Assembly: GCA_977862235.1 (NCBI GenBank)
Contig: OZ374565.1
Location: 1,240,001-1,304,000 of the forward strand
Length of the DNA stretch: 64,000 nt
Direction: 5' to 3'
DNA from: Dudresnaya verticillata
Taxonomy: Eukaryota
Part shown: positions 3,611-57,813 of the stretch, piece by piece
Layout: each line of letters opens with the position of its first letter
Position numbering within the stretch: position 1 is the stretch's first letter
Program-made: the position numbers and the translations under genes
The notes under the pieces: generated by a model
Told to the model about the DNA's origin: nothing
Databases searched by the model: none
Seen by the model: only the letters and a program-made list of their open reading frames with translations

Positions 3611-3770
3611 TCTTTTTGGTCTCCCGACCTAGAACACCGTCAAGGTAGAATAATCTCCGTTGGACTCCGCTTCGGTAGGAGATCAGCTTTGTGACAACTC
3701 CGTATTGGTGTAAAGGCAGGACAAGGCAAAACACTCGTTGACTCCATTTTGGTAACCTAAGAATAGACAC

Positions 3771-6378: not shown

Positions 6379-6416
6379 GGGCGTCCCCGTCTCCTCAATG
6401 CGACGTTGTACGCCCA
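6354..6416 (+). promoter_or_regulatory. Putative -1 programmed ribosomal frameshift signal (G GAA AAC plus pseudoknot)
   Basis: Heptamer in gag phase just before gag stop; -1 frame open into protease; AGGAGACG/CGTCTCCT stem and GGGCGT/ACGCCC second stem. Confidence 0.7.
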
Positions 6417-9400: not shown

Positions 9401-11400
9401 CCGTTACGGACTATTACAGCCGTCGTGGTAGCGAACGCATTTTTAGACCATTGGGTGTATGCGTATGGCGCTCCTAAATTTGTACTCACCGACAATGGAC
9501 GACAGTTCACGGCGAAGTTCTTTGACGCTGTCTGTGCCCTATGTGGCATAGACGTCAGGTCGAACTGACGTCTAGCTGCGCTGGTCGATCAGTCGCACCC
9601 AGACCCGTCGAAGGGTGGTAGCTGTGGTGGTAGAGCGGTGGTGTCGGCCGTGCGCGCCGTCGACGGTCGCGGATCAACGGCGTCGAAGCCTGAGCGCGCA
9701 CGGGGCGTACCGTAAGCGGGCGGCAGCGGCCGGATCCCTGCGTCCCCGTCGTGGGGCGGCACGAAGCCGACGGTAGGGAAAGGAAAATGAAAGCCTAGGA
9801 GGCTAGGGAAAGAGGGAAGCCGTAGGGCGAAGGACTGGGAAAGAAACCCAAAGCAGAACGGGCAAGCCTGGCGTAGGCTGGCTTGCCTTGTTTACTGAAG
9901 CCCAGAGGGGCGACTACTAGATATACTACAGGGCCTACGGCGGCACCCACCCAGGACGTGCGCCGGCGCGCCCCAACACGCATCGGCGCGTACGGGTAAC
10001 GGTAACCCGGGGGCGCGCGTAGGCGGAACGGTCCACACGTACTCAACGGCTCGACGCCGGGGTGCGCGCGCGTGTCACGCATTCAACGGCTCTGCGCCAG
10101 AGTGCGTGCGCACAGCGCGCAGGACAGCAGGGCGTTCGACCGCCGCTTACACTAGACGGTGCTGTACACTTACAAAACAAAACAATAAACGTAGAAATTA
10201 CATGGGAGTTTCAGTGTCACACGCGAACGCGTGCACACTTGGGCGCCACTGCGCACTCCCTTACAGTTCAGCGGGGCTTCGGCGCCACCGGCTGACAGCG
10301 TGCGCACAGCAGTGCACACGTGTCGCAGCTGGTCTTACAGCTGCGCGTGCGTGGCACAGCTGGTCTTACAGCTATGCCACACCCTACTCGGAGTGCGGCA
10401 TTTGCTGACCGCTGCTTCTCACCCGCAAACCAACGGGCAAGCCGAGCGGTTTAACAAAACCATCGCGCAGCGCCTCCGACACTACGTCGAGGATCACCAC
10501 ACCGATTGGGATTTATACCTACAGCCGTTAACCTACTCCTATAATATGCAGGTACACCGGATCACGGATACTACTCCTTTTGACTTGGTGTTAACTCGAC
10601 ACCCACCGGATATTATTGTGCGTGGCACCCCTGTGGAGTTGGAAGAAACCGTTACGGAGGGGCGTATGACGCCCGTACCCCAAAAGCGGGGAACCATGCG
10701 GCGTTTGCGTTATGCCCTACAGAAGGCGCAGACCAAACAGACTACAGCCCAGTTGAAGTCCAAGGTCCTATTCGACCGTAAGGTGCGCTTCCGACCGGTG
10801 GTTCGCGGTGGCGATCAGGTCTACGTAGATCGCCCGCCGCGCAATCTACGGCCCACCGAACGGAAGGAACGCAACCGATTGGGCCAAGGCCCTGACCACG
10901 TCGGTGAATTTGCGGAGCAAATGAAGAAGCTCCTCCCAAGATCGACGGGCCCCTACTAGGTGCACACCGCAACGGATACTGTAGTCACTATCAAGAAGGA
11001 TGGCGTCCTGATTCCCATGAGCATCGATCGCATCACTAAGGTACCAATTGGAGTTCCCGTGCAACCGGCGCCGCTATTGGCTCCGCCGGTTACGCCACAC
11101 ACCGACGTGGACGGTACAGTATCCCAGCAGGCGGGAGGCACCACAGTAGTATCCCAAACACCAGGTGGTATTACTGTAACGCCCCAAATGCCAGGCGGTA
11201 TTTCTGCCCCCGTGTCAATTAGAGACAATTGATGCCGACACGGAGTATGTCATCGAGCAGATCGTGGGACACCGCGAAGAACCCACGGGCATGACCTACA
11301 AGGTGCGTTGGTACAGCTAACCACCAGACCAGGACACGTATGAACCCGCTGAGGAGTTGCCGCAAAACTTCACATACCGCTATTGGAATAGAAAGCGCAC
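6360..11400 (+). pseudogene. pol: pol of family A (PR, RT, RNase H, IN, chromodomain), disrupted
   Basis: LNSGAGPN (protease D>N), RFCVDYR, YLDD, LDTDAC, TDHDAL, VITDRFSK, LTDNGRQF, HPQTNGQAERFN; chromodomain EYVIEQIVGH..YKVRWY..DTYEPAEEL at ~11240-11400; frameshift ~7000, deletion ~9326, solo LTR insertion, stops. Confidence 0.92.
9542..10381 (-). mobile_element. Solo LTR inserted in family A integrase
   Basis: TGTGGCATAG...CTATGCCACA termini; TSD CCCTA; integrase DAVCAL|LGVRHLL rejoins on removal; orientation inferred from CAGTAAAC motif. Confidence 0.9.
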
Positions 11401-11828
11401 GGCAGCCGCTGCAGCTCGACTTCGCAGAGCTCCCACACGTCGATAGCCAGTCGCTACACACCCACGCAGTAGGGTTTTGGCAAAATCGGGCATGACCCGT
11501 GGACTCCGTGTTCACAGAACCCTTGCCCAAGGGACTCTACTCCATATTGGTGACTTGGCGTTGGTACAAAATGGGCATGACCTCTGGACTCTGGAACCAC
11601 AGAACCCTTGCCCAAGGGGCTCTACTCCATATTGGTGAATAGCCGGCAAGCGAACAACCACTTCTTGTATGAGGTGGTCGTCAACCTGACGCAAAGCCTT
11701 GTATGGTGTAGGGTATCCCCGCCACTTCGGGACTCACTCCACAGTGGTGTTATTCCACTTCCCCTCCGCCAGTGGAAGGGGGGCTCACAAAAATCACAAG
11801 ATTTTATTGACAAGTGGCATTTTTACGC

Positions 11829-14684
11829 TTACACTGCATTTCGCGGACGCTTCGCTGGTGGCGCCAGGTCAGCCTCCGTATCCTCCTCTTTTGCCGCACT
11901 CTGCTCCAAGTCGGGAATATCTTCACCATACACCCTTGCGGTAATCATGGTGAGTCTCCTACCGGTGTCTGCCTTGCGACGACGCAAGGCGCGAATGGTG
12001 CGCCGCAGGCGCACCAGACGCCCGACCCACAGCACTGCGGTGTTAATGGCCTCGTTTGCCGACGCTGGGAGCGGCATACCCGCGTCCCTACACCCTTCGC
12101 GGAGTCGCTGCAGAGCAGCCCCATCGACACGCAAATCCGCGTCGCACCACGTCGCCATTTCCACATCGGTCTCCTTCTCCTTCTTGACCGTGACGGAGTC
12201 GGTCAGCCTTGCCGCGGCACCAGCTGGATCCAAGGGCGTGATGCAGACGACGGAGTCACTAGACTCTGTCGAAGTCGGTTTGACCACGCCGCCCAGTTTT
12301 GGTGTACCTCCCTGCATTGTAGCGAACGGACTCACCCCCAATGGTGTAGACGCCTTTCTTTTCCCCATTGGCGTCGTAGCCACTTCCGCATCGGAGTCTT
12401 CTGGCGATCCAATGGGTCCCAGCTGAGCGGTCTCGGCCACCCGCGCTACGGGCTGGGTCTCCACGCTGGTAACCTTCTCTCCCGTAGTTGGTGGAGCACG
12501 GGCTTCACTAACCCTTGGCAGCACCAGTGTCCTAAGCGGAACCGCATCGGTGTGCGCCGGTGATGACGGGGGCGGCAACACAACCATCCTCCCCTGTGCC
12601 TCTGCTCCTTTTGGAGACACCGTTACGGGCTTAGTCGGCGGTACCGCCCCGCGATCGCGGTTACTCGCCTCAACCTCTGGCGATTCGCGGGGCACCAACA
12701 CCCTCGGGTCTGCACACGTTGACTGGATGCCTACCATTCCCACGGGTGTAACTTCTTCTTGATCTGCCAAGGGGCTCCCGCCACGCGCACGTTCCCCAGA
12801 CGGCATACCCCACTCGCGGTGTCCCGACCGCCTCGGTGGCCCCTCCGTGACCGGATAGTGCCTTGCGTGGGATCGCATCGCATTCCAGTTGGCCATCTCC
12901 TCATCAAGCAACCACACCGGATTGGGGTCCTCTGCCGACAAGTAGTAAAGCAGACCGCACCCTGGACTCAGCGGTGGAACGGACAACACCCGGTCGTCGT
13001 CCCAATGGTAGCCGACGAAACCCGGTGTCTTCTTCCAGTTGGTGTTTGCGTGAATCGTGAACAACCATTGCACGCGCTCCGACGGATACTCGGTCCCCTC
13101 CACGAGCGCGGCTACTCCCATCTGGTGTATGAGCGAAACGACCTTGGCGGGGAACTCGAAAATGCGCCCACAGTCGCCATCCTCCGGCTCGGTGCTGTCT
13201 CTTGGGAAGGCTCTCCAATCGGTCATCTTCGTGTTGGCACGCACACCACGATAGGTAACTTGTAGCCACGAAAAGAGCACGAACATCGCCCACCCCGAAC
13301 GCAGGATCAACTCCAAAACGGCCATCTGTGGGTGATCGATCGACTTCTCTCCGCCTGGGTGTAACTCTTTCCAATTAAGGTGCCGAAGGAACCTATTCGT
13401 GAAGTACGCCACCACGGTCGGAGTTGGCACCGAAAGCCAGCGGGTGACCTCGTACTCGGCCCACCACTCCGGCGCGGTAAGGTAGAGGCTGCGGTGCGAT
13501 GACGCCGGCACTTGGAAGAATTCGTGGGTATTACACGTGTGGAGTAACACCCTACCCAAACGGCGCCCATCGCGATCCCGTGAACGGAGTAGGTGTTCCT
13601 TTGCTGCGTCGTCGGACCACCGTTGCGGATTGCCAAACCAATGTACGCCTTGGTCGTACGGTTTGGTGTAGCACAAGAACTCCACACCCACTGGACGATC
13701 CTGCAGCCGATGTGCGGACACCAATAAGCGGAACAAATTCTCGGGATAACCCTCTTCTTCTTGACACCGCACCCATACGATGTCACACCCACGAGGAGTC
13801 CTTGTCCGGCAAGCGGAGTGAATCCAGCGGGACTTCCACATTTCTTCCCGCCGGTTCGGAAACCACTTGTGGTTGATCAGCCCGCTGGACTCCGTCACGG
13901 CGTTATAGCGGCGCCCCTCCAGCGTCTCGGCATAATCCATCACAAAAACCGAAACGGGAAGGGGGAGGCGGACCATGTCGCGCTCCTCTTCCGTGCGGTG
14001 ACGCCGACCTGTGCGGTGGTCGTATTCGCGACCCAACCACGTCGCCTCATGGATGTAATTGGTTGAGCTCGCGAGACCCCGATACCCAGCTGGAGTGTAA
14101 GACCTTTGCCCAGGTGGAGTCATCACGTCACCCCTCGTCGGTGACGGCCGTGGATGAACGTTCCCAGTCCGACCATGCGGAGTCGCCCACTGCTGCTCCG
14201 ACGTAACGGGCGTGAGCCCCCTGTCGTGGCTCACCGCTTGCGCGGTACTCCATTTCGGTGTTACCCCTGCCAGGCCGATGCGCCCCTTCTCCCACTTGAC
14301 GATCCGGAAGCGGTGTATTCGCCATCCGGCCCTCGCCCCTGAGTTGGCGGCGTGGCACCCTCGGGCTTGCCGGGCGCCCTGGGGTCCGGCCGCCCCAGTC
14401 GGAGACTCCAATACGGTCGTCGCCCGCGCTTCGTCTTGATGCGTGAGCGCCTCCGCGGCCGGCACCTCCCCCGTCGACTGCGCATACCGCGTCGGTTGAA
14501 AAGGGGGCCGCCCGCGGTCAGTGCTGCCACCCGCCATGGCAAGCGGCACACTGGAATGGAAGAACGCGTTGGTTGACGTGCAAGATGATGCGCCAGTTGG
14601 TAAGAGAGCGGATGATGGAACGTGGCGGTGCACCTGAGCGGAGTGCGTACCCAACTCCCGCGGCGCACGAGGACGTGTCGCCAT
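11829..14684 (-). CDS. Antisense accessory protein of Gypsy family A, 951 aa, unknown function
   Basis: Uninterrupted ORF between pol and 3' LTR; ATG 15 nt from LTR boundary; W/Y/F-rich central region, low-complexity linker, basic helical C-terminus ending PPAKRPR. Confidence 0.8.
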   Translation of the reverse strand: MATRPRAPRELGTHSAQVHRHVPSSALLPTGASSCTSTNAFFHSSVPLAMAGGSTDRGRPPFQPTRYAQSTGEVPAAEALTHQDEARATTVLESPTGAAGPQGARQARGCHAANSGARAGWRIHRFRIVKWEKGRIGLAGVTPKWSTAQAVSHDRGLTPVTSEQQWATPHGRTGNVHPRPSPTRGDVMTPPGQRSYTPAGYRGLASSTNYIHEATWLGREYDHRTGRRHRTEEERDMVRLPLPVSVFVMDYAETLEGRRYNAVTESSGLINHKWFPNRREEMWKSRWIHSACRTRTPRGCDIVWVRCQEEEGYPENLFRLLVSAHRLQDRPVGVEFLCYTKPYDQGVHWFGNPQRWSDDAAKEHLLRSRDRDGRRLGRVLLHTCNTHEFFQVPASSHRSLYLTAPEWWAEYEVTRWLSVPTPTVVAYFTNRFLRHLNWKELHPGGEKSIDHPQMAVLELILRSGWAMFVLFSWLQVTYRGVRANTKMTDWRAFPRDSTEPEDGDCGRIFEFPAKVVSLIHQMGVAALVEGTEYPSERVQWLFTIHANTNWKKTPGFVGYHWDDDRVLSVPPLSPGCGLLYYLSAEDPNPVWLLDEEMANWNAMRSHARHYPVTEGPPRRSGHREWGMPSGERARGGSPLADQEEVTPVGMVGIQSTCADPRVLVPRESPEVEASNRDRGAVPPTKPVTVSPKGAEAQGRMVVLPPPSSPAHTDAVPLRTLVLPRVSEARAPPTTGEKVTSVETQPVARVAETAQLGPIGSPEDSDAEVATTPMGKRKASTPLGVSPFATMQGGTPKLGGVVKPTSTESSDSVVCITPLDPAGAAARLTDSVTVKKEKETDVEMATWCDADLRVDGAALQRLREGCRDAGMPLPASANEAINTAVLWVGRLVRLRRTIRALRRRKADTGRRLTMITARVYGEDIPDLEQSAAKEEDTEADLAPPAKRPRNAV

Positions 14685-14699
14685 TTAAGCAGGGGGGTC

Positions 14700-15395
14700 T
14701 GTGGTGAAGCGGCCGTTGTGGAGTGCCGACGACGGTTGAGCCGACTCGCGACCGGCGCACCGATGAGCTGGCGCCAAAAACCGAACGGGAGTGCAGCGAC
14801 ACAGTAGCACTGTACGCCTTGCTGGAGTCTGCGCGCACCACCAATAGGAGCCAAGTAGTTGATTTATTTGTAATTAGGCAATTTTTATCATGCTGTACAG
14901 TACGTAGTGTCAGCCGGCCAATGAGAATGCCGAGCATGTCCGCCGCAACGGTGACCGGGACCAAAAGGGCCGGACCCACCTGGTGGCCCAGACCCACCTG
15001 GTGGCCCAGACCCATTGGGGTCTGGCCCACACGGACCGGACCGCGGGGCGTATCTCCCAGTATATTAATTGGTGGCCACCGCGAGTCCTACAGTAAACGG
15101 GTACGCAACCCTGGGCAAAGTGACTTACCCTAAGCCTTACCCTCATACTCCTTTACGGTTTCCCCTCGCCAGCCCCGCGCACGGATTCCTCTTACCTCCA
15201 TCCCGGTGTAGCTGCCCTAGCACTGTACCGTCCCCCTTGTCTGTTGCGTCCCTTTACTCCTTACAGGTGTTGCCGCTCTAGGTGCTCCCTTCGGTCTACG
15301 AACTAAGCTCTACCACCCCGGTGCCGTGTGAGATCACTCCTTATTGGGATTGCCTGATCAGCTCTCCCTACAGGTGTGCCTTTCACTTCACCACA
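14700..15395 (+). repeat. 3' LTR of family A
   Basis: Direct repeat of 2918-3610, preceded by PPT, followed by TSD. Confidence 0.95.
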
Positions 15396-37683: not shown

Positions 37684-38715
37684 GGACATGGTCGCTGGCG
37701 CCTCACGTCACGGGTCAGGTACCCCAGATGGTACCCTGGCACGCTTTCACCAAACCTTCCGGAGACGACAGCCCTTTTTCCGGGCTTCCAAAATCACGGC
37801 GCATTTAGGCCTTTTGCAAAAGCAACGTGAAACGGGCTTCTGATTGGTTGTTACAAACCGCCTCCATGGTCTATATGGCTTACAAGTGTTGTGCTGGAAT
37901 TGGCGGTTATAACAGGAACGGCCAAGTGGAACGATCTGATTGGACCACATGGATGCACGTGGTATGGCATGGAATGGTACTGGTATGACGCGCACTGTAC
38001 TCCACAAGTACATATGAACGTGCTATGCAATGTGCTGATGGCGTCTGAGTTGGTACTGCAGGGACTTGCGCTACGTGGAGCCTGGCTTGTGATATCAGCA
38101 GATGCAGTTGTCGTGCGGCCAACACGTCGGTTTACAGTTGCCACGTAGCTGTCGTGCGGCCGACACGTTGGTTTACAGTCGGCACGTAGGTGTCGTGCGG
38201 CCGACACGTTGGTTTACAGCTGCCACGTAGGCAAATCTGGGTGATTACGTGGTCAATGATCCAAGTTGGATATTCATGGACGGACTTGAGCTGGTAAGTG
38301 CGGCCACGTGGTGTGCAGCGTTGTCCGACAGCAGCCATGCGGGGACACTCGATACTTTCGAGTTCCCGCCCAAAGTTGGAGTACATATGGATGGCAGGAA
38401 ATGCGGTCGCAAGAGGGATTGCTGATGTCAGCAGTTAGCAACACTGGTGTGCAAGTTCCCGCCCATTTTGGTGGCGGATGTGAGTGTGCTGAGAGTATGA
38501 TTTGGTAGATTTAATTGTTTTACTTTTTCCAGCCCATTTGATGATAGGGATTTTGGGCGTTTCTTTAATGATTTGTTTTGTTTGTGTTCACGCAGCAACT
38601 CATCCGAAAAGCTGATATAAGCCTTGTCGGATGGTCGACTGCAGTAAACGAAGTCAAGCGACTTCCATTTCTCATCTTGTTCAACTCCAACCTCTCCATA
38701 TTCCTTTTCATCATC

Positions 38716-41463
38716 ATCGTTTTACAACGAAATAGCAAGGTTTCGCCACCTGCTACCGCACGTGCAACCCGAACGAACTACGCTATTACAGCGGAACACT
38801 ACCAACCAACGCCACCACAACGCAACTCGCGGCTAGGACTGATGGCATCACACGCCAACGCTACTCTAGCGGGAATCAAGGAAACGACGTAAAGTCGACG
38901 TGGGACCACCTTAAGCCGACGCGAATCGCGACGCAGAAAGACACTGACAATGGTCAAGTTTACTGGGCTAAACAAGTGGGGAAAACCCCGCACCCTTGTT
39001 AACGACCACTGCAGCTAACACGTCACAACGACAGCGACACTAACCGTCAACGACGAATGGGAACAACCCCCGCTCATCGACGGCGAAGAGGAGTCAAAGA
39101 GCGTCACAGTACGCAATCTCGCGTCCTCTACCCGTTTCAAAAAAGATATCAAGTATCTTTTGTCGCAGACGAGTTGGCTGGGACAACCTTAGCATCGCTC
39201 TCGGCAGACACGCGCAACGCCTCTTCATAGAGGTCGTCCTCCGTCGTCGACGGTAAACCCGCGGCAGGAGCAGGGACGGAGCGCAAGGTCCCCGCGCCTA
39301 CTACTGCCTGAGTGCTCGCGACAGGCGCCGCAGGTGCAGGGGCGACTCATCTATCGCCTTTGGCGAAGTCGCTAGAATACCCGCCACAGGCGATGGAGCA
39401 ACTAAATCCTCCGCAGGCGTAGAGTTCAACTCATCATCCGCCTTTGGGCCCGACCCAGAACCAGCCGCCTTTGGCGTAAGCTCAGAAACCGCCTCGATCG
39501 GAATCACATCCTCACTCGCCTTTGGCGATATTTGCTCTACATCCGTCACTGACGCAGGAGCTCCTGGCTCCTTTTGGGGCGTCGACGACGTTTTAGCAGC
39601 ATTCGCTTCGCTCGCCGCAGGCGGTACAGTAACAATAACGTCTTTAGACGCTGGACCATTCGCCTTAGGTGATGGCGGCTTTCCTGCCATACTGTCGTTC
39701 GACACGGAGCCTACGACAACAGTCGGTTCTGGCACGGACCCACCCTGGGATAGCAACGCAACCGCCAAGGATTGGCTCACCCACTCTGTGGGTGAGCCGC
39801 TCAAACCGCTAGTAGCGACGCCGGCAGCCTGCAATAACGCGAGAACTGTACGGAGCTGTTCTTCAGTTCAGACTGGCACACCGGGAGCTCAAATTCCACT
39901 CCAACGTCCAGACAACGCCAAGGGGCAGGACCCCTGGCAAGAATCCGCTAGAAGCGTAATGACCGACCAGTTCGTCGCTGCGCAAAGCGTCCTGGTCGAA
40001 CCAGGGGACCCGCGCGAAGAACTGCGCGTAATCGCGAGGATTATTACCGATGAAGTCGACTGTCGATGCGTATATGGGCGCGGCAGAGGGCGGCGCCACC
40101 TGCATGCCATTGAATACCGGCATATCCTCGAAGTCGTGGATAAGTTGTCGCCGCAGGCGATGTATGCAAGAACGTCAAAGACGACTACTGTACAGCGCCG
40201 CTGGCGAAAGTCTTGCACACGTGCGTCAAAGACGACTACCGCTCGGCACCACAGGTGATGGAAAGAAATATCCGTCAACGACGTTCAGTTGCAACGCTAC
40301 AGGCGATACGAAAAAACATGACGATTGCCTCGCGGCGCCAGAAGGCGAGGGAACCTGAACGACGTCAACGACGGGAATCGAGACGCGACACGGGCGGTGA
40401 TGTCGGGACAGCGCAAGTGCACGCAGCACGCAACACGAGCGGAGTTAGTACGGCACAGCCAAAGTCGCAACGAACACGCGGGTACACCAACACGAGGCGC
40501 CGGAGCGGGCAAGGACGAAGAGGCAACGCGCGCGGCGGCAAGTTGGGGGTCGGACGTGTTCGCGTTTTGGAGGTGTGTTGTGTGGTGCAAGGGGGGTGAG
40601 CCCCTTTTTCGCTCTGAGAGTGTAATACGCCGTCGACCGACGTGCAGTCCCAACCGCTGTTGGCGCGCGCGAACACGTCACGGACGGTCGGCCCAACGGC
40701 GTACGGGCGCCGCAATCGCGCACGGGCATGGCGGCTCAAGCACTGTACGCCCGGCGCGGCACGCATCCGGATCACCCATCGGGATCCAGGAGGTGTAAGA
40801 CGCGCATCTGTAAGTATGGACCAGATCCGGATTTGATCTGGAGCGGATATCGGGACCAGATCGGGACCCGTTACAATGTAAGACGTGCGCCTGTAATGAC
40901 GACACGCCAGCAATGCCGGTAGGGATCGAGATCCGAATCCAGATCACCTCTAACGACGTGCGGACGAGCCTGTAAGCTACTCATTACACGCACGCACGTC
41001 TGTATGCTACTGTTTACCCGCGGGTACGCGGCTGCATGACGATGACGACGAGTGAGACGCCCGGCGGCGTGACACGCGTCCCGAGTTCCCGCGTGCCACG
41101 CCACGCCGCCACCGCACGCATCGTAGCGATAGTATATTAGGTAACCCGTCTGGGACGTTGAGTAAATCCCGGCAAACCGGCCCCGGAACTGAAGCCCCTT
41201 CGCTAGTGCGTACTTCTCGTTACCAACGAAGGCAACTGCGCAGCTCCGCCCGCGCTTCCGCGTCCGTCTACGTCCCCAATGCGTCTCTCTTTTTCTCTCT
41301 CTTTTCTATCTTTGTGGCTTTGTTTCCACTCCTACCGCCCAGAGCGTTTACAGTCTACCCTCGACGTGTTCCCTTCGCTCTAGCACACCCTCGCTACCAG
41401 CGTTCTACCACCAGGATCGAACTACCCGGAGGTGTTCCTCGTCTCTAGCCGGTTTGCACCACA
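38716..41463 (+). mobile_element. Gypsy family B remnant B1 (3' internal region with deleted antisense ORF plus 3' LTR 40581-41463); also includes 31281-31387
   Basis: Inverted homology to 44001-45586 and 52417-53725; LTR TGTGGTGCAA...TTGCACCACA. Confidence 0.85.
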
Positions 41464-41469
41464 CTGTTG

Positions 41470-44000: not shown

Positions 44001-45704
44001 TGTGGTGCAAACCGTCTATAGACGAGGAGCACATCCGGGTAGCTGGATCCCGGTGGGTAGAACGCTGGTAGGGAGGGTGTGCTAGAGCGAAGGGAACACG
44101 GCGAGAGCGGGCAGTAAACGCCCTGGGCGGTAGGAGTGGAAACAAAGCCACAAAAAGGGAAAAGAGAGAGAAAGAGAGAGAAAGAGAGAGACGCATCAGG
44201 GACGTAGACGGACGCGGAAGAACGGGCGGAACTGCGCAGTTGCCTTCGTCGTTAGCGAGAAGTACGGACTAGCGAAGGGGCTTCAGGTCCGAGGCCGGCT
44301 TACAGGGATTTACTCAATGTCCCAGACGGGTAACCTAATATGCAATCGCTACGATGCGGGCGGCGGCGGCGTGGCGTGGCACGCGGGAACTCGGGACGCG
44401 TGTCACGCCACCGCGCGTCTCACTCGTCGTCATCGTCATGCAGCCGCGTACCCAGGGGTAAGGAGTAGCTTACAGACGTGCGCGCGTGTAATGAGTAGCT
44501 TACAGGCGCCTCCGCTCGTCGGTAGGGGTGATCCGGATTCGGATCCCAATCCCTGCAAGCATTGCTGGCGCGTGGCCATTACAGGCGCACGCCTTACATT
44601 GCAACGGATCCCGATGGGTGATCCCGATGTCCAATCCAAATCCAATCCGGATCTGGTCCATGTTACAGATGCGCGTCTTACACCTCCTGGATCCCGATGG
44701 GTGATCCGGATGCGTGCCGCGCCGGGCGTACAGTGCTTGAGCCGCCATGCCCGTGCGCGATTGCGGCGCCCGTACGCCGTTGGGCCGACCGTCCGTGACG
44801 TGTTCGCGCGCGCCAACAGCGGTTGGGACTGCACGTCGGTCGACGGCGTATTACACTCTCAGAGCGAAAAAGGGGCTCACCCCCCTTGCACCACACAACA
44901 CACCTCCAAAACGCGAACACGTCCGACCCCCAACTTGCCGCCGCGCGCGTTGCCTCTTCGTCCTTGCCCGCTCCGGCGCCTCGTGTTGGTGTACCCGCGT
45001 GTTCGTTGCGACTTTGGCTGTGCCGTACTAACTCCGCTCGTGTTGCGTGCTGCGTGCACTTGCGCTGTCCCGACATCACCGCCCGTGTCGCGTCTCGATT
45101 CCCGTCGTTGACGTCGTTCAGGTTCCCTCGCCTTCTGGCGCCGCGAGGCAATCGTCATGTTTTTTCGTATCGCCTGTAGCGTTGCAACTGAACGTCGTTG
45201 ACGGATATTTCTTTCCATCACCTGTGGTGCCGAGCGGTAGTCGTCTTTGACGCACGTGTGCAAGACTTTCGCCAGCGGCGCTGTACAGTAGTCGTCTTTG
45301 ACGTTCTTGCATACATCGCCTGCGGCGACAACTTATCCACGACTTCGAGGATATGCCGGTATTCAATGGCATGCAGGTGGCGCCGCCCTCTGCCGCGCCC
45401 ATATACGCATCGACAGTCGACTTCATCGGTAATAATCCTCGCGATTACGCGCAGTTCTTCGCGCGGGTCCCCTGGTTCGACCAGGACGCTTTGCGCAGCG
45501 ACGAACTGGTCGGTCATTACGCTTCTAGCGGATTCTTGCCAGGGGTCCTGCCCCTTGGCGTTGTCTGGACGTTGGAGTGGAATTTGCGCTGTGCCGTTCC
45601 TCCGGAATGGCTCTGGGTCCGAGCCGGACAGTCGCGTGCGGATTTCCGTGCTCGTTTCGTCTCAGTCGTCTATCGGCGATTCACGCGTTACCCCGGGTCG
45701 GCGT

Positions 45705-48700
45705 TGTTGAGAGTTGAGAAGTTGGCTTGGTTGTTTACTTGTGTCTACCTCTATTCACTTCAATGTGCGAGGTAACTTATACTACTCGTGGGTAGCCAAA
45801 CTCTCTAAAGCTTCAATACTACAAAGGGTAACTCCTACATTTGGTTACCTCTGAATTTGGTGAAGGCCAAACTCGTGTGCATCTCGATTGAGGAAGCACT
45901 GCAGTTGTTACTGCTTTTGACACTCCCTCTCGTCCTCAAGCGTCTGTTTCGCGTAGGCCCATGCCTTGGACAAACTGGGTGTGCTTCTTCGCGTTGAGAG
46001 ACTCCGTCATGATGTCGGCAACCATCTCGTTCGTAGGCACGTACAGCAGCTTGATGGTTCCATTGCGAACATGGTCTCGAAGAAAATAATACTTGACATC
46101 GATGTGCTTGGAGCGGTCGTTGCATACATCGTTCTTCGCCAGCTCTAAGGCTCCCTGATTGTCGCCCCGAATTAGCACGTCAATGCTACTAGACGAAGTG
46201 CAGTCAAACTCGGCAAGCATCCGGCGTAGCCAGATGGCTTCTCGAACTGCGTAGGACAGGGCGATATACTCAGCCTCTACTGTAGACTGTGCTACCACAT
46301 CCTGTTTCTTACATCGCCAAGAGATAGCTCCACCAGAAAAGAGATAAACGAAGCCACTCACTGACTTGCGCTCGATGCGGTCAGCTGCGAAATCGGAGTC
46401 AGTGTAGCCCAGGAGCGTTGTTCCCTGTTTAGCGGCGCGATGATACACAATGCCTAGGTCCCTTGTCTTCTTCAGATAGCGCAACACCTGTTTGGTCGCT
46501 TTCCAGTGCATCACCAGGGGATCCTGCATAAACCGGGCAAGGAAAGAGGTGGCGAAAGCGATGTCGGGCGGGTCGTGTTGGCCAAGTGAAGTAATGCGCC
46601 GACTAGTTCGCGTTATGGCACGAACTGCATGCGCCGGTACTCCCCCTCGTCCCGAGACTGTAGTAGAGGTGGAGAATCTAAGACCATCCCCGGAGGGATC
46701 GGGACGTCTGCTGTACGGCACTGTGACATTCCAAACTTCTCGGTGAGCTGATCAATCATCAGGGCACTGTGGATCTTCAACGTGCACTGTGGATCTTCAA
46801 CGTGCTGAGCTGGAGATTTCGTTCGATGATGATTCCCAGGAACTTCGATACATCATCTTCGACTCGAATTGAGACATGTGCGGCGATGCGGTTGGCGACT
46901 GTGGTAAGATCGCGGCGAGATGGACCAGCAAGCAGCATGTCATCGACGTAGACAATCAGGTAAATCGTTATGTTGCGAATGTGGAGGATGTAGAGAGTGG
47001 AATCGGATTTTGATTTGGTAAACCCCAAAGAGGTAAGAAGCCTATCGACGACGCGATGCCAGGCCCGGGATGCTTGTTTCAAACCATACAGGCCTTGAGC
47101 AGACGATAGACCCACTTAGATCTTGAACGGTCTACAACTCCTTCTGGTTGCTCCATGTAGATGGTTTCATCGAGTTCGCCGTTCAGGAAGGCTGCCTTGA
47201 CATCCAACTGCAGAAGAGCCAACTCCTCATCAGTTGCGAGAGCCAGGATGAAGCGCAGCGTGGAGTACCTTGCAACAGGAGCGAAAGTCTCGTTGTAGTC
47301 AATGCCGTGTTTTTGCGTAAAGCCTTTCGCCACGAGACGCGCCCGACGACGAGTGAGAAGACCTGTAGCATCAAACTTGTTCATGTAGACCCACTTGTTC
47401 TTGACTGGCTGGATGCTGGATGGTCGTGCTTCGAGAGCCCAAGTTCCATTTTGGTTGAGCTCATCGATCTCGTTCTGCATGGCATCTTGCCACTCAGGTG
47501 CGTGAGGTCCCTTGACAGCCTCACTGTATGTCGTTGGCACAGTACTGTCATCATTTCCGAGGCGGACGTTTAGAGCGATGGCGGTGAGATCCGTGTAGCG
47601 CCTAGGCGGCTTCGAGATGCGACCGGAGCGCGTGGCATTGGGAAAATGGGTGACATCGTCCGGATTGTGTGCGGGAGATGGATTATCCTGCGCATCATGG
47701 AAATTGTCTTCGTCGTCGCCCGAAGAATCGTCAGAGTCGTCGTCAGAATCGGTATCATCACTGGAATCGTCATCCGTTGTCTCGGAGGCGCTGTCGTCTT
47801 CACTGCCAAGGAGAGAAGGGCAGTCATCATCATCCTCATCCACGTTGAAGGAAACGTTAGAGGGTCGTCCAGACTTGAAGGTAGCGGCACGATCAGAGCG
47901 AGACTGACCATAGCGTTGTGTTTCATCGAAAGTGACATCTCGGGGGGTGATTACTTTGTTCTCAGTCGGAATGTAGACCTTGTAGCTGTTCCCGCTATCA
48001 TAGCCGACCAGAACCCCCTTCTTTGCACGCGCAACGAACTTTCCAGAGCGCCGTGGCTTCGGGACGTGTACGTAGGAGACCGCGCCGAAAGCGCGAAAGT
48101 AAGAAATATCAGGGCGCTCTCCAACAATGACTTCGTATGGCGTCTTGTCAGGGTCGTTGCAAGCAGTCGTGAAGAGCCGGTTGCGGATGTAGTTCGCGGT
48201 GTGCATGGCTTCAGGCCCATAAACGGTCATGACAATTGAGATGGGAAACCTCCTGTAAGAGTGTACGTACCATGTCCATGAGGGTGCGGTTGAGGCGTTC
48301 GGCCTTTCCATTCGATTCCGGAGAGTACGGAGCACTGCGTTCATGGATGATACCTTTGTCGGCGAGCCATTTTTTGAAGGATCCGGAGAGGAATTCTTTA
48401 CCGTTGTCTGTGTGAAGACGGCGGACGGTAATGCGCTTGACATTGCCACGGAAGATTGTCTCCAGTTCGAGAATCATGTGCTTGATGCATTCGGCAGCCG
48501 GCTTCTTTGATTTCATGAAGCGAACGAGAGACAGCGCGCTAGCGTCATCATACAATGGGATACAGTAGCGAGACCCGTTGAGGGAAGGGTCTCTCACGGG
48601 TCCGATGATATCTGCGTGGACAAGGTCTAGGGGTTTTAAATTGTCAGAGCGCGAGGGCGGGCGGGAGTCGCGAGTGCACGTACCGGTCTGGCATGGTTCG

Positions 48701-50433
48701 CAGATAGAAATCTTGGTACAATGCTTGAGCGAGATGCCGTTGACGATGGGGATAGTCTTTTAAATGGTCCCTTTGCTCGCATGTCCAAGACGGGAATGCC
48801 AGAGGTCTTGTTCTTCTTCCTTCGTGAGTAGAGCGAGGTCTTCAGTCAGCATGTCGATTTCATAAAGCCCGTCAGACCGCTCGGTTCCTTTGAGGAAGAT
48901 TCCTGAAGTGCCAGCACGGGAAACGACACAGATTCCGTTTCCCTGGTTATCAATGTCAAAGTGGATTCTGAAACCGGCACGGCGGAGCTTGCTCACAGAG
49001 ATGAGGTTGCACATGAGATCAGGGATGAAAAGTGTGTCCTGCATACGAACGGACTGGGTCATGCCATCAAACGTCGCACGACCTCGAACTGTGCCTACAC
49101 CTTTGACTTGAGTCTGGGTTCCATCTCCGACGGAAACCGAGGTGTCTGTTCCATTTGAGCTTAGATCTTTGAAGAACGTTTCGTTGTTGCACATGTTTGA
49201 AGTGGCCCCGGAATCGAGGAACCACTTGTCCTTAAGCTTTAGCGCAGAGCCTGATCGAGAGGTGAGGCATGTAGCAATAAAGGTGATGTAGCTCGAGCCT
49301 ACGTCTTCAGAGGTGTCGTCCTTGTCGTTTCGTTTGTCACGAGATCTTCCATGTCTCCTTGAATGCGAACCACGGGTTCGACGAGTGCTATACGTGTCGT
49401 GGTTACCCCGATGGGTGGGGTTGGGGCGATACCTCGGACTCTCGGGGTTGTGGAAACATTTCGACTTGACATGCCCGTTTCGACCGCAGTGGGTACATTT
49501 CTTGGCATGTTGAGCAGAAAGGGCGGCGGAGTCTTCCGCGGAGGACATATCGGTGTCACGAGGCGGCAATGAAATCTCGTGAGTGACAAGCATGCCAATT
49601 GCAACGTGACGGTCGTGTTTCATGGCACGGATGACTTGCACAGGAACACTGTAGTCCTCGGTCAAGCCGCGAAGCAGGGCTCGCTTCTTGTCGCTTTCGG
49701 AAACAGTGTGTCCGACACCGGAAAATTTGCTCTCGAGTTCCCGAAGGCGGTTGACATACTGGACGATTTTCTCGTCGGTCCTCATCTTGAGAACCTGGTA
49801 CTGCGCGAGGTATGTGTCGACTGACGCTTCGGAGATAGCCTGGTAGGTAGTCTGTAGTTGTGTCCAGACTTCGGTCGGGTCTCGGAGGTCGATGACGGCA
49901 GCATTACAGGAATCATCAATAGTGAGGAGAATGTTGCTCAACGCCGAATCGCGCCGGCGGAGGTACTTGGCCTGCTCGATAGGGTCTTCGGGTGTGAGTT
50001 CAGATCCACTGACGATTTTCCAAAGACCTTTGCAGCGGAGAACCAGTTCGACCTTGCGGGACCAGCGGTAGTAGTTGGTAGAGTTAAGACGCTCAATGCG
50101 ATAGCGACTAGTATCCACGGTGTCTAGGGGCTCCGTCATCGTGGTACTGGCGGTCGGTAGCACAGAGGAGACAATTCAGCGTAGCACAGTAGCTTTTAGT
50201 TCTGGGCCCATAACTTGTTGAGAGTTGAGAAGTTGGCTTGGTTGTTTACTTGTGTCTACCTCTATTCACTTCAATGTGCGAGGTAACTTATACTACTCGT
50301 GGGTAGCCAAACTCTCTAAAGCTTCAATACTACAAAGGGTAACTCCTACATTTGGTTACCTCTGAATTTGGTGAAGGCCAAATTCGTGTCCATCTTGATT
50401 GAGGACGCACTGCAGTTGTTACTGCTTTTGACA
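45705..50433 (-). mobile_element. Ty1/Copia element with 218-bp LTRs, degenerate
   Basis: LTRs 45705-45922 and 50216-50433 (4 differences seen); TSD GGCGT; CTHCGRNGHVKSKC, WFLDSGAT, HTDNG, YVDD, YTDSDFA; stops, frameshifts, 20-bp duplication at ~46764-46803. Confidence 0.95.
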
Positions 50434-51634
50434 GGCGTTAACGCCGACCGTCTTCAACTTTGACGCGGGGCAATATCAGCTAACCGGCGAGGCCGAATAT
50501 GGTGGTCATCTTGGGACGTTATCGCTCAGACACGTGAACGTGTCGATTGAGCCTCGCGTTTTGCAAGAGGCTTACCTCTTAGGTGTAAGCTTGAAAGCGG
50601 ATTTTCGTTATCTGCATCGGACGGGTACGTTCTTTAGGGAGCGTCGTATCTGTTGGGAATGTGAAACGCGTCGCAGAAAGGGCGTGTTTGTACCTCATCA
50701 GGACATCCAAGTCGACCGCATTGAGCGGAGTAAGTTACACCACTGTTTTGTGAATATGCCGCCTGTGTGGCGTGAGTTTGAGATATGCGAAGGTTCTGCA
50801 GCCGAGCTCCCCGCGTGTGACACGTATCTTGGTTCCGAACTGATGACAGACCCGTATTCGAGGCATGGGTAGCGTTCTACACCGAATGGGTGGCCAACGT
50901 AACATACACTTGGTTGTGTGAGGTATATGACACCTTCCGTATGTACTACAGTATATGCCGCTGCGTGTGGTCGCCATTCTTGGTGGCCTCGACGTAGTCG
51001 AAATACACGGTGGTTCGCGGAACTGCCAGGCGTTCTGGTATTTACGCGCTGCTGCGGATGGTATTGATTGGAACGACCCAGTTGCCATGCCGTTAGCCAA
51101 CAACCAACATAAGGCGAATCGTCCGCGTTACGCGATGAGTCGTACTCATTCCGTTTGTGGCGATTGGATTTGATATAGCCCTTGGCCAAAACGTCGCACG
51201 ACGAAGAATATTGCGGAAAGCCATCGCAAGAGTGATGGCTTCACGCCGGGTAATCACCCGCGCGATTTGCGTAAGAACTGCTACTTTGTCGGTGATTTTC
51301 CTCCTCATTTTAGCGCCTTGATAGCGGGAGAGGATGCCTTCCACGCCAATGGCGGACCGGAGAACTGTATTATCTCTAAAGCACCGCCGCGTCAGCAGCC
51401 AAACGAGACCCCAAGAAGACCACAAAGACCTGTCGGATTTAACCAAAAATTGGCCAGAACGTAGAACGGACCTGCGCGTCGGTAGCAAGCGTGGTAGAGC
51501 GGGAGCGCGCAGACGAAGTCGTGACCAAATTCTGCGATGAGGACAGAAAATGGCCAAGCCGGGGGTTCAGTTGCTAACTTTACTCCCAACCTCTGGCGGG
51601 ACGGCTTCGTACCTATTCTGGCCGAGCCGTAGTC

Positions 51635-52150
51635 TGTGGCCTTCTAATTAGGCCCAAAATCGGTCACTAGAGCTAATCTAGAGCTAGTCTACAGTTAGTG
51701 GCCGAGGTTACCCACCATGGCCCAAAATATCTTCTCGCATCCTGCCTTCGGGCCAATATTAGAGCCCTACCGAGTTAAATCGAGTACTTGTCAGTTGATC
51801 AGTGGTTGTAGCAGTTAGATTTCCCTTGATTTTTTTTCGTGCTTGATTCCTTGATATGGTGGCGCGGCCAAATCCTTTTCCCGTAATCCGATCCCGTTTT
51901 GATCCTGATTCGCCGATCCAGATCACCTCTGTCGTCCAGATATGATCACTCTTCCTTGCGCTGGCCACGTGGTTGACACGTACACACGTATGGCCCACGT
52001 GTCATGCGTGTGGCTCCCTACCGGCGTCCACGCCGTCCGCGTGGCTGTACAGTAGCGACTCCGGCCAAGTGTCTTTTTGGAGTTGGCCAATTCGGTTGCG
52101 TGGCCCGGTCGACAGGCGTGTTTTCGGAGGCCCCTTGCCATTGCACCACA
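51635..52150 (-). repeat. Insert containing 5' part of another Gypsy-type LTR
   Basis: Minus strand starts TGTGGTGCAATGGCAAGGGGCC; ~51915-52150 is an inverted copy of 57570-57807; left boundary approximate, no TSD. Confidence 0.6.
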
Positions 52151-54292
52151 AGAACCCGCCTGGGACTGCTATTGCTACGCCTATGGCGGTAGAGTCTGTC
52201 GCTGGAGCTTGCTTTTCCGTCCACGACGTTACCCACGGAGGTTCCCGCGGCGGGTGCAGTGCCAACTGGCGCACCAGCTGTTGCGCACTTGGACCTTGCA
52301 GTGCCCGTTGTTGACGACAAGGGTGAAGTCATTAAGGCTGTGCCAGTGTCGGAGCTACCCTGGCCGTAATTCCAGAAGGCGGAGAATCAAGCGTCGTAGA
52401 TGACGGTTCAGAGACAGCTCCCGGTGTGCCGGTCTGGACCGAAGAACAGCTCCGTACAGTTCTCGCGTTATTGCAGGCTGCCGGAGTTGCTACTAGCGAT
52501 TTGAGCGGCTCGCCCACGGAGTGGGTGAACCAATCCTTGGTGGCTGCGTTGCCGCCCCAGGGTGGGTCCGTGCCGAAACCGACTGTTGTCGTAGGCTCTG
52601 CGTCGAACAATGGTATGGAAGGAAAGCCGCTATCGCCTAAGGCGAATGGTCCAGCGTCTAAAGACGTTATTGTCACTGCACCGCCTGCGGGGAGCGAAGC
52701 GAATGCTGCTATAACGTCTTCCACGCTCCAAAAGGAACCAGGAGCTCCTGCGTCAGTGACGGACGTAGAGCCAATATCGCTAAAGTCGAGGGGGACCCGA
52801 CGCCGACCGAGGCGGTTTCCGCGGTTACGCCAAAGACGTTTGATGGGTTGCCACTTGCGCCTGCGCTTGATGGCTCTCGGTCTGTGCCAAAGGCGAATAA
52901 TGAGTTAAACTCTGCCCTACGGCGGTTGTTGTTGCTCCATCGCCTGTGGCGGGTATTCTAGCGACTTCGCCAAAAGCGATAGATGAGTCGCCCCCTGCAC
53001 CTGCGGCGCCTGTCGCGAGCACTCAGGCAGTAGTAGGCGCGGGGACCTTGCGCTCCGTCCCTGCTTCTTCCGCGGGTTTACCGTCGAGGACGGAGGACGA
53101 CCTCTATGAAGAGGCGTTGCGCGTGTCTGCCGAGAGCGATGCTAAGGTTGTCCCAGCCAACTCGTCTGCGACGAAAGATACTTTACATCTTTTTTGAAAC
53201 GGGTAGCAGACTCGAGAGCGCGTACTGTGACGCTCTTTGACTCCTCTTCGCCGTCGATGAGCGGGGGGTACCCCCATTCGTCGTTGACGGTTAGTGTCGC
53301 TGTCGTTGTGGCTTGTTAGCTGCAGTGGTCGTTAACAAGGGCGCGGGGTTTTCCCCACTTGTTTAGCCCAGTAAACGTGACCATTGTCAGTGTCTTTCTG
53401 CGTCGCGATTCGCGTCGGCTTAAGGTGGTCCCACGTAGACTTTACGTCGTTTCCTTGATTCCCGCTAGAGTAGCGTTGGCGTGTGATGCCATCAGTCCTA
53501 GCCGCGAGTTGCGTTGTGGTGGCGTTGGTTGGTAGTGTTCCGCTGTAATAGCGTAGTTCGTTCAGGTTGCACGTGCGGTAGCAGGTGGCGAAACCTTGCT
53601 CTTTCGTTGTAAAACGATGATGATCGTCGAGAGACATCGTTTGGGGGAGACCCGTTTCCGCTGACTTAGCGTTTTGTCGTGCCTATATAGCGGTGGGTCC
53701 TAGACGTGGTTGATTGTAGATGGGGCTGGGTTTTACCCTTATCAAACCTCATGTCGTCGCCAATACAGCGTATTGTTTGTGCGGCGTCGCGGACGAAGGT
53801 CGCAACGACGATGAGATAGGTGCTTAAGCGACTCGGCGTCGCTGCTCTTTTCGTCTCTGACGTTCGCCTTCAGGGGTGAGGAATGGTCGCCGTCCCTCGA
53901 CTTTGGTCATGACGGCCACACCCAGCGGCGGAGTCATTGCGCAATTTGTTGGCGCGTCGTTCACGGAACCCACGATAACTGCTTCTTCAACCACCTTTCC
54001 CCCTTTTCGGCGGGTTCGGTGGTGTGCCCTCTCGTTGCGAGCTACGTCGGAGACGTACGGCGCGTGTTTTCTTCACAGCCGTGGCCGGTAGGGTGACGGT
54101 GCCAGGGACTTCGCCGTGGTGCGAACATGGTGCCCCGACGTCGGAGAGGGTCGTTGCGCGATTCCACTTGCGCCTGTCGTCGCTGGTGTCCGTAGCAATT
54201 GCTTATCCACTTGGAATTATTGTGTTCGTCGCGTCGTTAATTGTTGGGCAATGCGCCTCGCCGTGTTTGTGAATTAGAAGTTGTCCAATCGC

Positions 54293-54994
54293 TTTTTGTT
54301 CCCATTACCCGATTGGTAGGGTGCGTATCTCGATTTGCGATCTGGATCCAGCGACGTGCGCGTATCGCGAAACAAACCATCTGTAAACGTTACACAGGCC
54401 GCGAAATCTCCGTAGCTCCTTCTGAGCCCGTGGATGCTTGGCTTCGCGCAGCGCGGCAGTGACAGTTTGATCGACTTCCAGCCGTCCTGGACGTATGACA
54501 GGACCCAAATAGTTGACAGTCAGGGTGAAGAGGTCACACTTGGTCAACTTCAAAGTCACCCCGGCCCGATGTAAGGTCGATAGGATCTCGTCAATGTGAC
54601 GGAAATGGCTGTCGATGTCGTTTGAGAAGATGATTACGTCGTCACGGTAGACGAGGCATGAGCGCCACTTGTAACCAGCGAGGAGGATGTCAAGCGTCCG
54701 TTAAAACGTAGCGGGCGCGTTTGTGAGACCGAAACGCATACTGTTAATGTTATAGTGGAACAGTCCGACATGGCACGTAAAAGCAGTCTTATCGCGGTCT
54801 CACGGATTTATCGGCACCTGCCAGTACCCACCGTTACCGTCTAGGGTGGTGAAGACGTTTGCCTCCCCTCGACTGTCAATTCACTCGTCGATAAACGGAA
54901 ACGGGTGCGTATCCCGCACGGTTACTGCGTTCAAACGACGATATTCTACGCAAAAGCGGAGGGTCCCGTCCTTCTTGGGGGCGAAGACCACTAG
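54293..54994 (-). pseudogene. Gypsy reverse transcriptase fragment
   Basis: PKKDGTLRFCVEYRRLNAVT, GYWQVPI, FGLTNAPATF, LVYRDDVIIFS, LKLTKCDLF..YLG. Confidence 0.9.
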
Positions 54995-57390
54995 TGATGT
55001 CTACGTCGATTGTGCTAGATCAACCGATATCTGCCAAACCTAGCACTCTGCAGGTTTGCAGTAATTAGTTGAGTAGGCATTTGGGGTGTCTCCACTTGAC
55101 TCCTCCACACCTCAGTCATGCTAGGACCTCTGTGTGTCCTGTACGCAGTTGCACAGTGCACAACTAGCTCAGACCCTGATTGAGTTCAGATCACTGACGC
55201 AACGTCGCCATCGTCACTTAGGTTTACGCACCACCGCCGTCGTCCGTTAGGTTAGGGTTGCTCAACATCGCCGTTGTGACCAAGGTTTGTCCACCGTCGC
55301 CGTCATCGCTTAGGTTTGCGCATGGTCACCGACGTCAAGCCCACCTTGGGGATCCGCCAACTCCGGTACCCAAGGTCTAATTAAACCGCTTCTCCCCTCA
55401 AGCTTCGAGTAAACTCAGACAAATCCATTTGTCTCCCTCTCCGCTCAGCTCTCAACTTCTCTCCTCATCTGGTCGCTCCCACTACCTCTCCAATAGGTTA
55501 TGGGCCCAGTAACGCATATATCTACTCGTTTCACAAACGTTCACCCGGTGGCTCGTCTCTGCGTTACATACTTCGGTTTGTCTCGCGGCCGGTGTTGCCG
55601 GTGTTGAATCGCGCTTCGGTCTCTGCGTCACATACTTCGGTTTGTTTCGTGGCCCGCTTCGCAATTCGACAGTACGTTTCTTGCGACTTGCAATTTTCTT
55701 TTCTTCATTCTTTCCTCTTTCGATGAGCCTAATCCCCCTCCAGTGGGCATCTGTCGCTCTATCCGCTACCGCGGTATTCGCATATCGCGCCGCGACCCTG
55801 TCGTTCGTCACCTGACCTTCAAAGACGACCCTTCCGGCCAACTTCGTGCATCCCGCGCCATCTGCGTCCCACGTGCTGTTCGCATACCCCTAGCTATCCG
55901 CCCTCCGCCGCGCCCGAAGAACCCGCTCATAGATGACTCTGCCATTGGGTATGACAGTGAGGGTGGTAACGTCTGCTCAACTCCCACTACTCCATCATCT
56001 TCCCCTGTCAGGCCCATCATCGAGAAGGCTCGAAGGGCTCCTCGTTCACCCCCACTACCTTCCGCAGCCGCACCCGAAGTTGTGTCGCTTGTCTCCCCAA
56101 GTCCAGCGCGACCCCGCGCAAAACGACCAACTTGAAAACTGTACGGTAGGTGTCCGGTTTCAAGCAGCTCATTCGCTACCGGAACAGTAAGAAGTGTTAG
56201 AACCGAGTAGAAAGACTGTCCACAATTACGCCTTGTGGTCACTGTCAGCGTGTGTTCCCTACTCTCCACGATCGCGATAAGCACCTCAGTAAGCACAACA
56301 AATAAAACTTCCTTAGCTCTCCTGGACCATGGAAACCACCTCTGGGATCAAGATCGAAAAGCTGCGGGACGACAACTTCCACACTGGGAAGACCCAGATT
56401 CAGCTTGTTCTGTCACTGAAGGAGGTTGACGGCTACATTTCCGACGACCATCCTGAACGTTCCTCGGACGAATATGCAGAATGGCGCAAAGGCGACATCA
56501 AGGCAAAGGCTTTACTCGGACTAACTCTTTCTGACGCGCACCTGGAGCAAATTCAGCATGCATATTCCACCAAGGAAATGTGGTCTCTCATCTATGACAT
56601 TTTCGAGAAACTGTTATTCAGAAACATACCCTCCTCAACAAGCTCGCTGCCCGACGACGTTTTTACACAGCAAGAATGCATGAGAACGAGAAGTTGCTGC
56701 CCTTCGCCGCTCACATTCGCCAACTGCCCGCCACTCTCAAGTCCATGTCGGTCAGTGTTGAGGACCCCGAAATGGCCATGGCACTACTGAATGGCCTTCC
56801 GGGCCGGTTTGACAGCCTTATTCCGGGCTTTGGATGCTGCGCATACCGATAAAAAACTCTTCACATTCGAGTTTGTGAAGAGTCGGTGCTTGCAGGAAGA
56901 ACAGAGGCATGTTGATCGGAATAAGGAAGCTCTCAAGACTTCTGAGACTGCTGCCCTATTAGCCAGAAACAGTTCCAAATCGCGCAAGAGTCCCTCAGCG
57001 GAGATCTGCGTACACCGCGGGAAACATCGGGACAGCTCCCGTTGCTACCCTAAATACCCCCATCTGGCTCCCGTTGGTCACCCGAATCGTGCACGCCTGG
57101 GCAACGACACTAACAAGAACAAAGCGTCCATCTCCAACAACTGTCCTGCCCCCTGGGCGATATGGCCCATGAGTATGTCTGCCTTTGGAACTTCCCTGTC
57201 ATTAACAGTATCGCCTTGCACTCCCCCGGTATCTCTCTGCTGACCTCCCAACACTGGATTATTGACTCTGGTTGCACTTCGCAAATCACTGCTTCAGCTT
57301 CACCACCTACCACCAACTTACCACCCCTTCCACTTTGGCCCTTGGTGCGAACGCCAACACTCCCATTGTTGGTCGTGGTGATGTCCCTCA
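54995..57390 (+). mobile_element. Truncated Copia: 5' LTR (~54995-55495), PBS, leader, degenerate gag-protease (56329-~57390)
   Basis: GGTTATGGGCCCAG at 55496; IKIEKLRDDNFH gag start; WIIDSGCTS protease. Confidence 0.8.
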
Positions 57391-57394
57391 AATC

Positions 57395-57545
57395 CGACGA
57401 CGAGGCCCTAGAGCGGGTATGCGCACGAGAATATCTCTACAGTCATCCAGAAGCGTGCCATGGCATCAACGTCAGCCGCGCGGAAGGCGTCGTAGAAGGC
57501 AACGTTGGCCGCGAAGACGGCGGCGTCCTCGTCGCCCGTCATGCT
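57395..57545 (-). pseudogene. SnoaL/NTF2-like domain gene fragment
   Basis: AVFAANVAFYDAFRAADVDAMARFW..SCAYP matches the N-terminal SnoaL-like pattern AN.AFY.AF...D...M...W....C.HP. Confidence 0.6.
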
Positions 57546-57569: not shown

Positions 57570-57813
57570 TGTGGTGCAACGGCAAGGGGCCTCCGGAAAC
57601 ACGCCTGTCGACCGGGCCACGCAACCGAATTCGCCAACTCCAAAAAGACACTTGGCCGAAGTCGCTACTGTACAGCCACGCGGACGGCGGTGGACGCCGG
57701 CAGCGAGCCACACGCATGACATGTGGGCCATACGTGTGTACGTGTCAACCACGTGGCCAGCGTAAGGAAGAGTGATCATATCTGGACGACAGAGGTGATC
57801 TGGATCCGCCAAT
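57570..57813 (+). repeat. 5' fragment of Gypsy-type LTR (same family as 51915-52150)
   Basis: Begins TGTGGTGCAACGGCAAGGGGCC; cut by Copia LTR starts. Confidence 0.7.

Follow-up and report, generated by a model that had tools for sequence, protein, structure and literature searches.

Plant retrotransposons of the Tat/Retand group (maize Grande, rice RIRE2, Silene Retand) encode an antisense third gene, aORF-3R, which is characterized as conserved across families and as consisting of a domain plus a coiled-coil-like part (PMC7264820, PMC11963269). For the antisense maize representative, Grande gene23, a promoter of its own and nuclear localization are reported (PMC7264820), and Retand is presented as a non-chromovirus limited to flowering plants (PMC11963269). 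An antisense extra gene, brtn, is also mentioned for Boty/BcGypsy1 of Botrytis and Sclerotinia (PMC7264820; bioRxiv 2021.04.13.439636). Transposon-borne accessory proteins with a proposed or demonstrated effect on the element that encodes them include Plavaka PAG1-3 of red algae and VANDAL VANC (bioRxiv 2025.02.11.637652), and in HTLV-1 the HBZ gene is described as an antisense 3'-end gene, driven by the 3' LTR, that acts as a nuclear regulator (PMC7264820, PMC11963269). What antisense third genes do in LTR retrotransposons is an acknowledged open question in the same two sources.

In this study we analyzed a window of 64,000 nucleotides from Dudresnaya verticillata (contig OZ374565.1), which is a nest of LTR retrotransposons (Table 1). 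The first-pass annotation had proposed that two Gypsy families, here called A and B, share an old, functional antisense accessory gene. The reading that we favor, with a probability of roughly 0.6, is that B represents a broken copy from a family of antisense genes situated behind pol, and that its protein probably works in the nucleus as a regulator, with the DNA or RNA of the element itself as the target. That this Gypsy lineage shares a family of antisense accessory genes is in itself highly probable; the carriers are taken to be chromodomain Gypsy retrotransposons, probably of red algae.

Family A has the features of a Ty3/Gypsy element, i.e., LTRs and a target duplication (CAGTG, flanking the element), the order PR-RT-RH-IN and a chromodomain past the integrase; its coding content comprises gag, protease, RT, RNase H, integrase, and a chromodomain remnant. 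The chromodomain piece misses the Pfam cut-off (E 0.0012) because a stop splits the domain, and it is matched by P0089 at 2e-14. The antisense ORF has its first ATG 15 nt away from the 3' LTR, adjoining the purine tract, and the protein, which ends in KRPR, matched no domain family in Pfam (sole match unrelated, E 0.19). Within 3756-14684, seven lesions were identified by homology in gag-pol (four frame changes, two stops, and one insertion) and none in the antisense ORF, a difference that is not significant (P ~0.09). A stretch of ~800 bp of GC-rich, non-pol sequence lies inside A's integrase (9550-10350).

Table 1. Features of families A and B in the window, with positions counted from its first letter
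Feature	Position	Strand	Remarks
Family A chromodomain Gypsy element	2918..15395	+	LTRs, target duplication, pol domains
Family A LTRs	2918-3610 and 14700-15395		mutual identity 96.9%
Family A antisense ORF, intact	11829..14684	-	951 aa, uninterrupted
Conserved domain of A protein	residues 215-583
Helical motif of A protein	residues 857-895		within tail
A motifs	13035-13484	-	single frame
Second B copy, internally deleted	38711..41464 plus 31281-31387	+
B LTR-like repeat (3' LTR in element's sense)	44001..44895	-	895 bp; ends TGTGGTGCAA...TTGCACCACA
B antisense gene, N-terminal piece	45353..45704	+	117 aa from first ATG, open frame
Nested Copia in B	45705..50433	-	target duplication GGCGT
B core-domain piece 1	50434..50869	+	profile positions 75-211
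B core-domain piece 2	50870..50954	+	past frame change; profile 215-245
B core-domain piece 3	50955..51365	+	past second frame change; motifs 3-4, one internal stop
B motifs	50747-50785, 50801-50830 (+2); 50875-50916 (+1); 50955-51005, 51036-51071 (+3)	+
Nested solo LTR, third family	51366..52150	-	target duplication AGAAC
B tail	52151..53197	+	low-complexity, A/P/S/T/V-rich; several frame changes and stops
Gypsy RT fragment, presumed remnant of B's pol	~54330..55000	-	3 stops

The antisense gene of family B starts (first ATG) 457 bp from an LTR-like repeat that has a terminal inverted 10-mer, ends in TG...CA as A's LTR does, and shares its end point with the second B copy at 41464; each B copy has one LTR-like repeat, and no partner LTR was found within the window. 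The two insertions that had been excised in the first-pass annotation are real, each with its target duplication, the Copia having 219-bp LTRs that are 98% identical and the solo LTR being 95% identical to 57570-57813. About 1.1 kb separates the end of the B tail (~53197) from an RT fragment, which is 65% identical to P0169 and 54% to A (E 4e-53 for its longest piece) and is presumed to belong to B from position and strand only; the Gypsy identity of B would follow from this adjoining fragment. Neither gag, RNase H, integrase nor chromodomain gave a match for B. Since B is without an integrase, the claim that both antisense ORFs occupy the same position, between integrase and LTR, is borne out for A, where the ORF lies behind the integrase, and would hold for B by extension. 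In the B tail the NLS-like terminal motif is absent and the family's C-terminal helical motif has no match. This copy is broken, strongly diverged and cannot make protein.

The second B copy keeps the LTR, the ORF start and the tail, whereas its core domain is missing altogether, and it does not extend as far as the RT fragment; both copies are interrupted by Copia insertions. A selection test on the B tails gave pN/pS of 0.41 in the annotated frame, the lowest of six frames, with two others at 0.45 and 0.51, and 28 of the 36 changes being transitions and 14 falling at second positions, which weakens this value. The two copies are 100% identical across 928 bp (39886-40813 vs. 44663-45590) with flanks at ~90%, which reflects either a gene conversion of recent date or an artefact of the assembly. 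LTR pieces at 3-540, 1248-1786, and 1901-2196, which are ~73% identical to B's LTR and have similar ends, form a family related to B. Elsewhere in the window, a young Copia (31388-38710) is bounded by identical LTRs of 1,033 bp and carries an intact ORF of 1,454 aa; another copy of it, 97.5% identical, is located at 57884-64000, and further copies of its LTR at 23654-24703, 26234-27244, and 30782-31280. Amid Copia LTRs lies a 524-aa frame (26943-28517, minus strand) that matches DUF7869 (E 2e-29). A short minus-strand frame at 57411-57545, which we take to resemble an NTF2/SnoaL-like N-terminus, had no Pfam match at E ≤ 0.01 and adjoins a fragment of the solo-LTR family.

The homology of A and B had been proposed from an alignment made by eye across frameshifts. 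All ten quoted motifs are present in the sequence, but the alignment itself was no better than shuffled controls (Smith-Waterman score 38, shuffle mean 38.6, with 519 of 1000 shuffles reaching at least that score), an outcome that the first-pass annotation had named as a refutation and that applies to the A-B pair taken alone. Direct A-B alignments, full length or core, did not exceed the shuffle level with either of two matrices, tblastn with A against the window did not find B, and the identity between the two is 16% across 172 core columns. As had been stated, the LTRs of A and B are unrelated beyond their ends (score 31, against a 100-shuffle maximum of 33).

A family profile, built from 76 relatives of A's domain with A and B left out, was searched against the whole window, divided from stop to stop into 2,226 pieces. 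The top rank went to A (E 3e-86) and the next two to B pieces (50432-50869, E 2e-7; 50821-50994, E 0.02), while the third core piece of B reached E 8 only. Taken jointly, the four B pieces scored 37.8 bits (reversed: -2.1), a score reached by none of 1000 whole and 1000 windowed shuffles, the maxima of which were 5.5 and 11.6. Individually, core pieces 1 and 2 obtained 27.4 and 10.0 bits, in both cases with 0 of 500 shuffles reaching the score, and the N-terminal piece was not significant (358 of 500 shuffles). In the profile alignment, motif pairs 1 and 2 keep their register, but pairs 3 and 4 are weaker, as the piece containing them scored -0.3 bits alone (reached by 21 of 500 shuffles) and they are aligned solely in the pairwise match of B with P0047 (whole stretch: E 4e-9), which spans all four motifs of the by-eye alignment. 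Among the 76 relatives, P0016 matched B directly at E 1e-10. With an identity of at best 25% to its closest relative and 10 of the 20 most conserved columns kept within its span, B is the most diverged member of the family and has the longest branch in the domain tree (57 of 81 sequences had enough coverage to be included). Judged from these comparisons, the homology between A and B is real and visible only via third sequences.

The relatives were obtained with A's core in an unindexed search, which gave 76 proteins at E ≤ 0.001 (identity 24-43%), 21 of them at E ≤ 1e-10; a word-indexed search with the same core returned none among 7,143 candidates, and the family surfaced only in the unindexed one. 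The only named relatives are multi-copy hypothetical proteins of Gracilariopsis chorda (an organism name was attached to 1 of 30 clusters inspected), which makes a red-algal host likely. Fused forms of 1,758-5,000 aa numbered 0 of 2,368, which is weak evidence. The phages searched for the domain family and the locus searches with single proteins provided no match, and a metagenome scan returned one distant RT. Domain proteins and pol relatives came from same-sized source contigs (P0010/P0092, P0045/P0105) for 2 of 52 lengths vs. 0.16 expected (P ~0.012), an indirect coincidence on which we do not rely.

Genomic context could be read directly for three intact genes (A, L002, and L004) and for 0 of the 76 database proteins. 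A total of 80 Gypsy loci, 78 of them obtained from genome contigs via pol alignment together with two others, were scanned in six frames, and the profile matched L002 (E 2e-18) and L004 (E 2e-23), where minus-strand ORFs of 853 and 1007 codons lie directly behind pol with chromodomain; the L002 ORF starts at the LTR/purine-tract edge, as in A. The 12 closest loci have an RT-RNase H identity of 51-57%, and seven of them extend past pol. Among these seven, L006 contains the last 474 codons of a homologous ORF, cut at the contig end (37% to L004, E 9e-81), L007 has only a 75-codon ORF end of weak similarity (E 9e-5), and L009, L012, and L013 show no domain within 1.2, 0.6, and 2.0 kb past pol. 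The other 68 loci had no profile match. A chromodomain was found in L002, L004, L006, and L007. Every positive locus belongs to a single assembly, G001, where a third domain member lies on a 2.5-kb contig without context, and the profile run over 201 genomes of G001's family matched in G001 only. This assembly, filed as a bacterial MAG, contains at least 10 eukaryotic Gypsy contigs (L002-L008, L010-L012, and L084); as many other MAGs also contain eukaryotic Gypsy contigs, this is a case of eukaryotic contamination.

In an RT tree of 194 sequences (FastTree), A, the B fragment, and L002/L004 fall within one clade (support 0.93) but in three different subclades, and L009, L012, and L013 belong to the group that is sister to L002/L004. 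In each of the three cases where an intact gene has a readable context, it is antisense in a Gypsy element and behind a chromodomain pol. The idea of an old, shared antisense accessory gene is sustained by the 76 relatives, by the profile homology of B and by the antisense position behind a chromodomain pol in another genome; its description as functional would follow from the family-level conservation and the confidently predicted fold. The gene is old and spread through the RT clade but may not be universal in it, no domain being detected in three of the seven close elements that extend past pol.

Family proteins are 550-1000 aa long and share a domain of ~350 residues, in which Arg, Trp, Tyr, His, Asp, Glu, and Pro columns are conserved but no cysteine column is; no column is invariant across 86 sequences, and L002 and L004 are without several conserved residues. 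None of the 76 members matched a Pfam family at E ≤ 0.001, with only coiled-coil families appearing in the tails at E > 0.001. The AlphaFold model of the domain, based on the 86 sequences, is a mostly helical, single compact domain (pLDDT 89.6, pTM 0.90). A PDB sequence search gave no match to the domain (the best hit, at E 0.003, fell in the profile's tail portion), Foldseek against PDB and BFVD found nothing at E ≤ 0.001, and the VIA structure comparison had best Z scores of 2.5 and 2.9 (for the latter rmsd 6.2, 120 aligned, among 48,161 chains), by which a new fold is not proven; compared with solved structures, the modeled domain is a candidate new fold. The tails are 26-54% A/P/S/T, with coiled-coil-like stretches in some members, an NLS-like motif within 40 residues of the C-terminus in 14 of the 29 long members (vs. 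14 of 116 control windows) and a small conserved helical motif in 11 of the 29 tails (A and 10 relatives). The pI of the domain varies between 5.5 and 9.9 and its net charge between -10 and +14, i.e., it is not consistently basic, which weakens the case for nucleic-acid binding.

Under the regulator reading, a promoter of antisense orientation, located within the 3' LTR or next to it, would produce a separate mRNA, as the anatomy and Grande gene23 suggest. The protein would then enter the nucleus, often by means of the predicted C-terminal NLS, and may bind nucleic acid through the conserved Arg, Trp, Tyr, and His residues and partners through its disordered or coiled-coil tail, and in the end the element's expression would be raised or the element shielded from silencing. 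Taken by itself, a nuclear regulatory function is tentative and somewhat short of even odds. We consider it rather unlikely that a large, old clade of red-algal chromodomain Gypsy elements has evolved, independently of the plant TRP28 and fungal antisense genes, a factor of new fold for anti-silencing or self-activation, as the retrotransposon counterpart of VANC. If it has, antisense nuclear regulators behind pol would have arisen three times.

In place of a binding regulator, the protein could also be an element-borne enzyme, e.g., one that modifies nucleic acids or chromatin and thereby lifts silencing. The globular domain is large and conserves D, E, H, R, and Y columns, and putative modifying enzymes are accessory genes of red-algal DNA transposons (bioRxiv 2025.02.11.637652). 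Such an enzyme is improbable, given that none of the columns is invariant and several conserved residues are replaced in B and L002/L004. We assign a similarly small chance to a post-transcriptional role, either in the export or packaging of unspliced element RNA or as an escort of the integration complex, like retroviral Rev or Cer1 CERV. NLS-like ends, Arg-rich conserved motifs, and coiled-coil tails are equally compatible with it, and functions of this kind are raised in PMC7264820, but the expression of an antisense gene would not depend on the genomic RNA.

The family could alternatively be a roving accessory gene of unrelated mobile elements, possibly Plavaka PAG1, with B being non-autonomous or non-Gypsy and the RT fragment unrelated to it. 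The missing integrase and gag of B, its long branch, and the three of seven close elements that have no domain would agree with this, as would the movement of Plavaka accessory genes among red-algal TE families and the lack of a known domain in PAG1 (bioRxiv 2025.02.11.637652). It is nevertheless very unlikely, because the intact genes lie antisense behind a chromodomain pol in 3 of 3 readable cases, the B repeat shares its TG...CA ends with A's LTR, and the RT fragment is on the expected strand and side. Hardly credible is an envelope-like or movement protein: the gene does sit where env lies, and in 9 of the 29 long members the mean hydropathy of a 19-residue window is ≥ 1.8, but the orientation is antisense, the maximum in A is 1.59, the ends are NLS-like and the model is a single compact domain. 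An env-like protein is defined by sense orientation and a transmembrane segment, and the antisense A protein with this maximum was not assigned to this class.

Compared with the described systems, the regulator family preferred here shares its layout with the plant aORF-3R of Tat/Retand, likewise an antisense third gene behind pol: an antisense ORF between pol and the 3' LTR is seen in A, L002, and L004 (in B, between the RT fragment and the LTR only), and conservation across families and species applies as well, as does the combination of a domain with a coiled-coil-like part. The carriers differ, with a chromodomain here and a non-chromovirus pol in Retand. Membership in the Retand lineage was ruled out by the chromodomain in A, L002, L004, L006, and L007, and membership in the TRP28 (PF04195) family of Retand by the result that neither A nor any of the 76 members matched it at E ≤ 0.001. 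In brtn, too, an antisense extra gene occurs in a non-plant Gypsy element, a likeness by description and not by sequence. The Plavaka and VANDAL carriers are DNA transposons, whereas those considered here are Gypsy retrotransposons, and no methylase, SET or oxygenase domain was detected in the antisense protein family; PAG1 was compared by description only. HTLV-1 HBZ is an analogy of layout only, with no similarity of sequence or fold found. No description of the protein family in red algae was found in the openly accessible literature searched. Antisense third genes are already known in plant and fungal Gypsy elements, and what is new here is an undescribed domain family. With it, a set of multi-copy "hypothetical proteins" annotated in Gracilariopsis chorda can be explained as probable genes of transposons. 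The family also offers intact natural members, conserved residues, a confident model and a candidate new fold. To the antisense genes of plants and fungi it adds an unrelated, large and, by prediction, well-folded domain family in a third host lineage.
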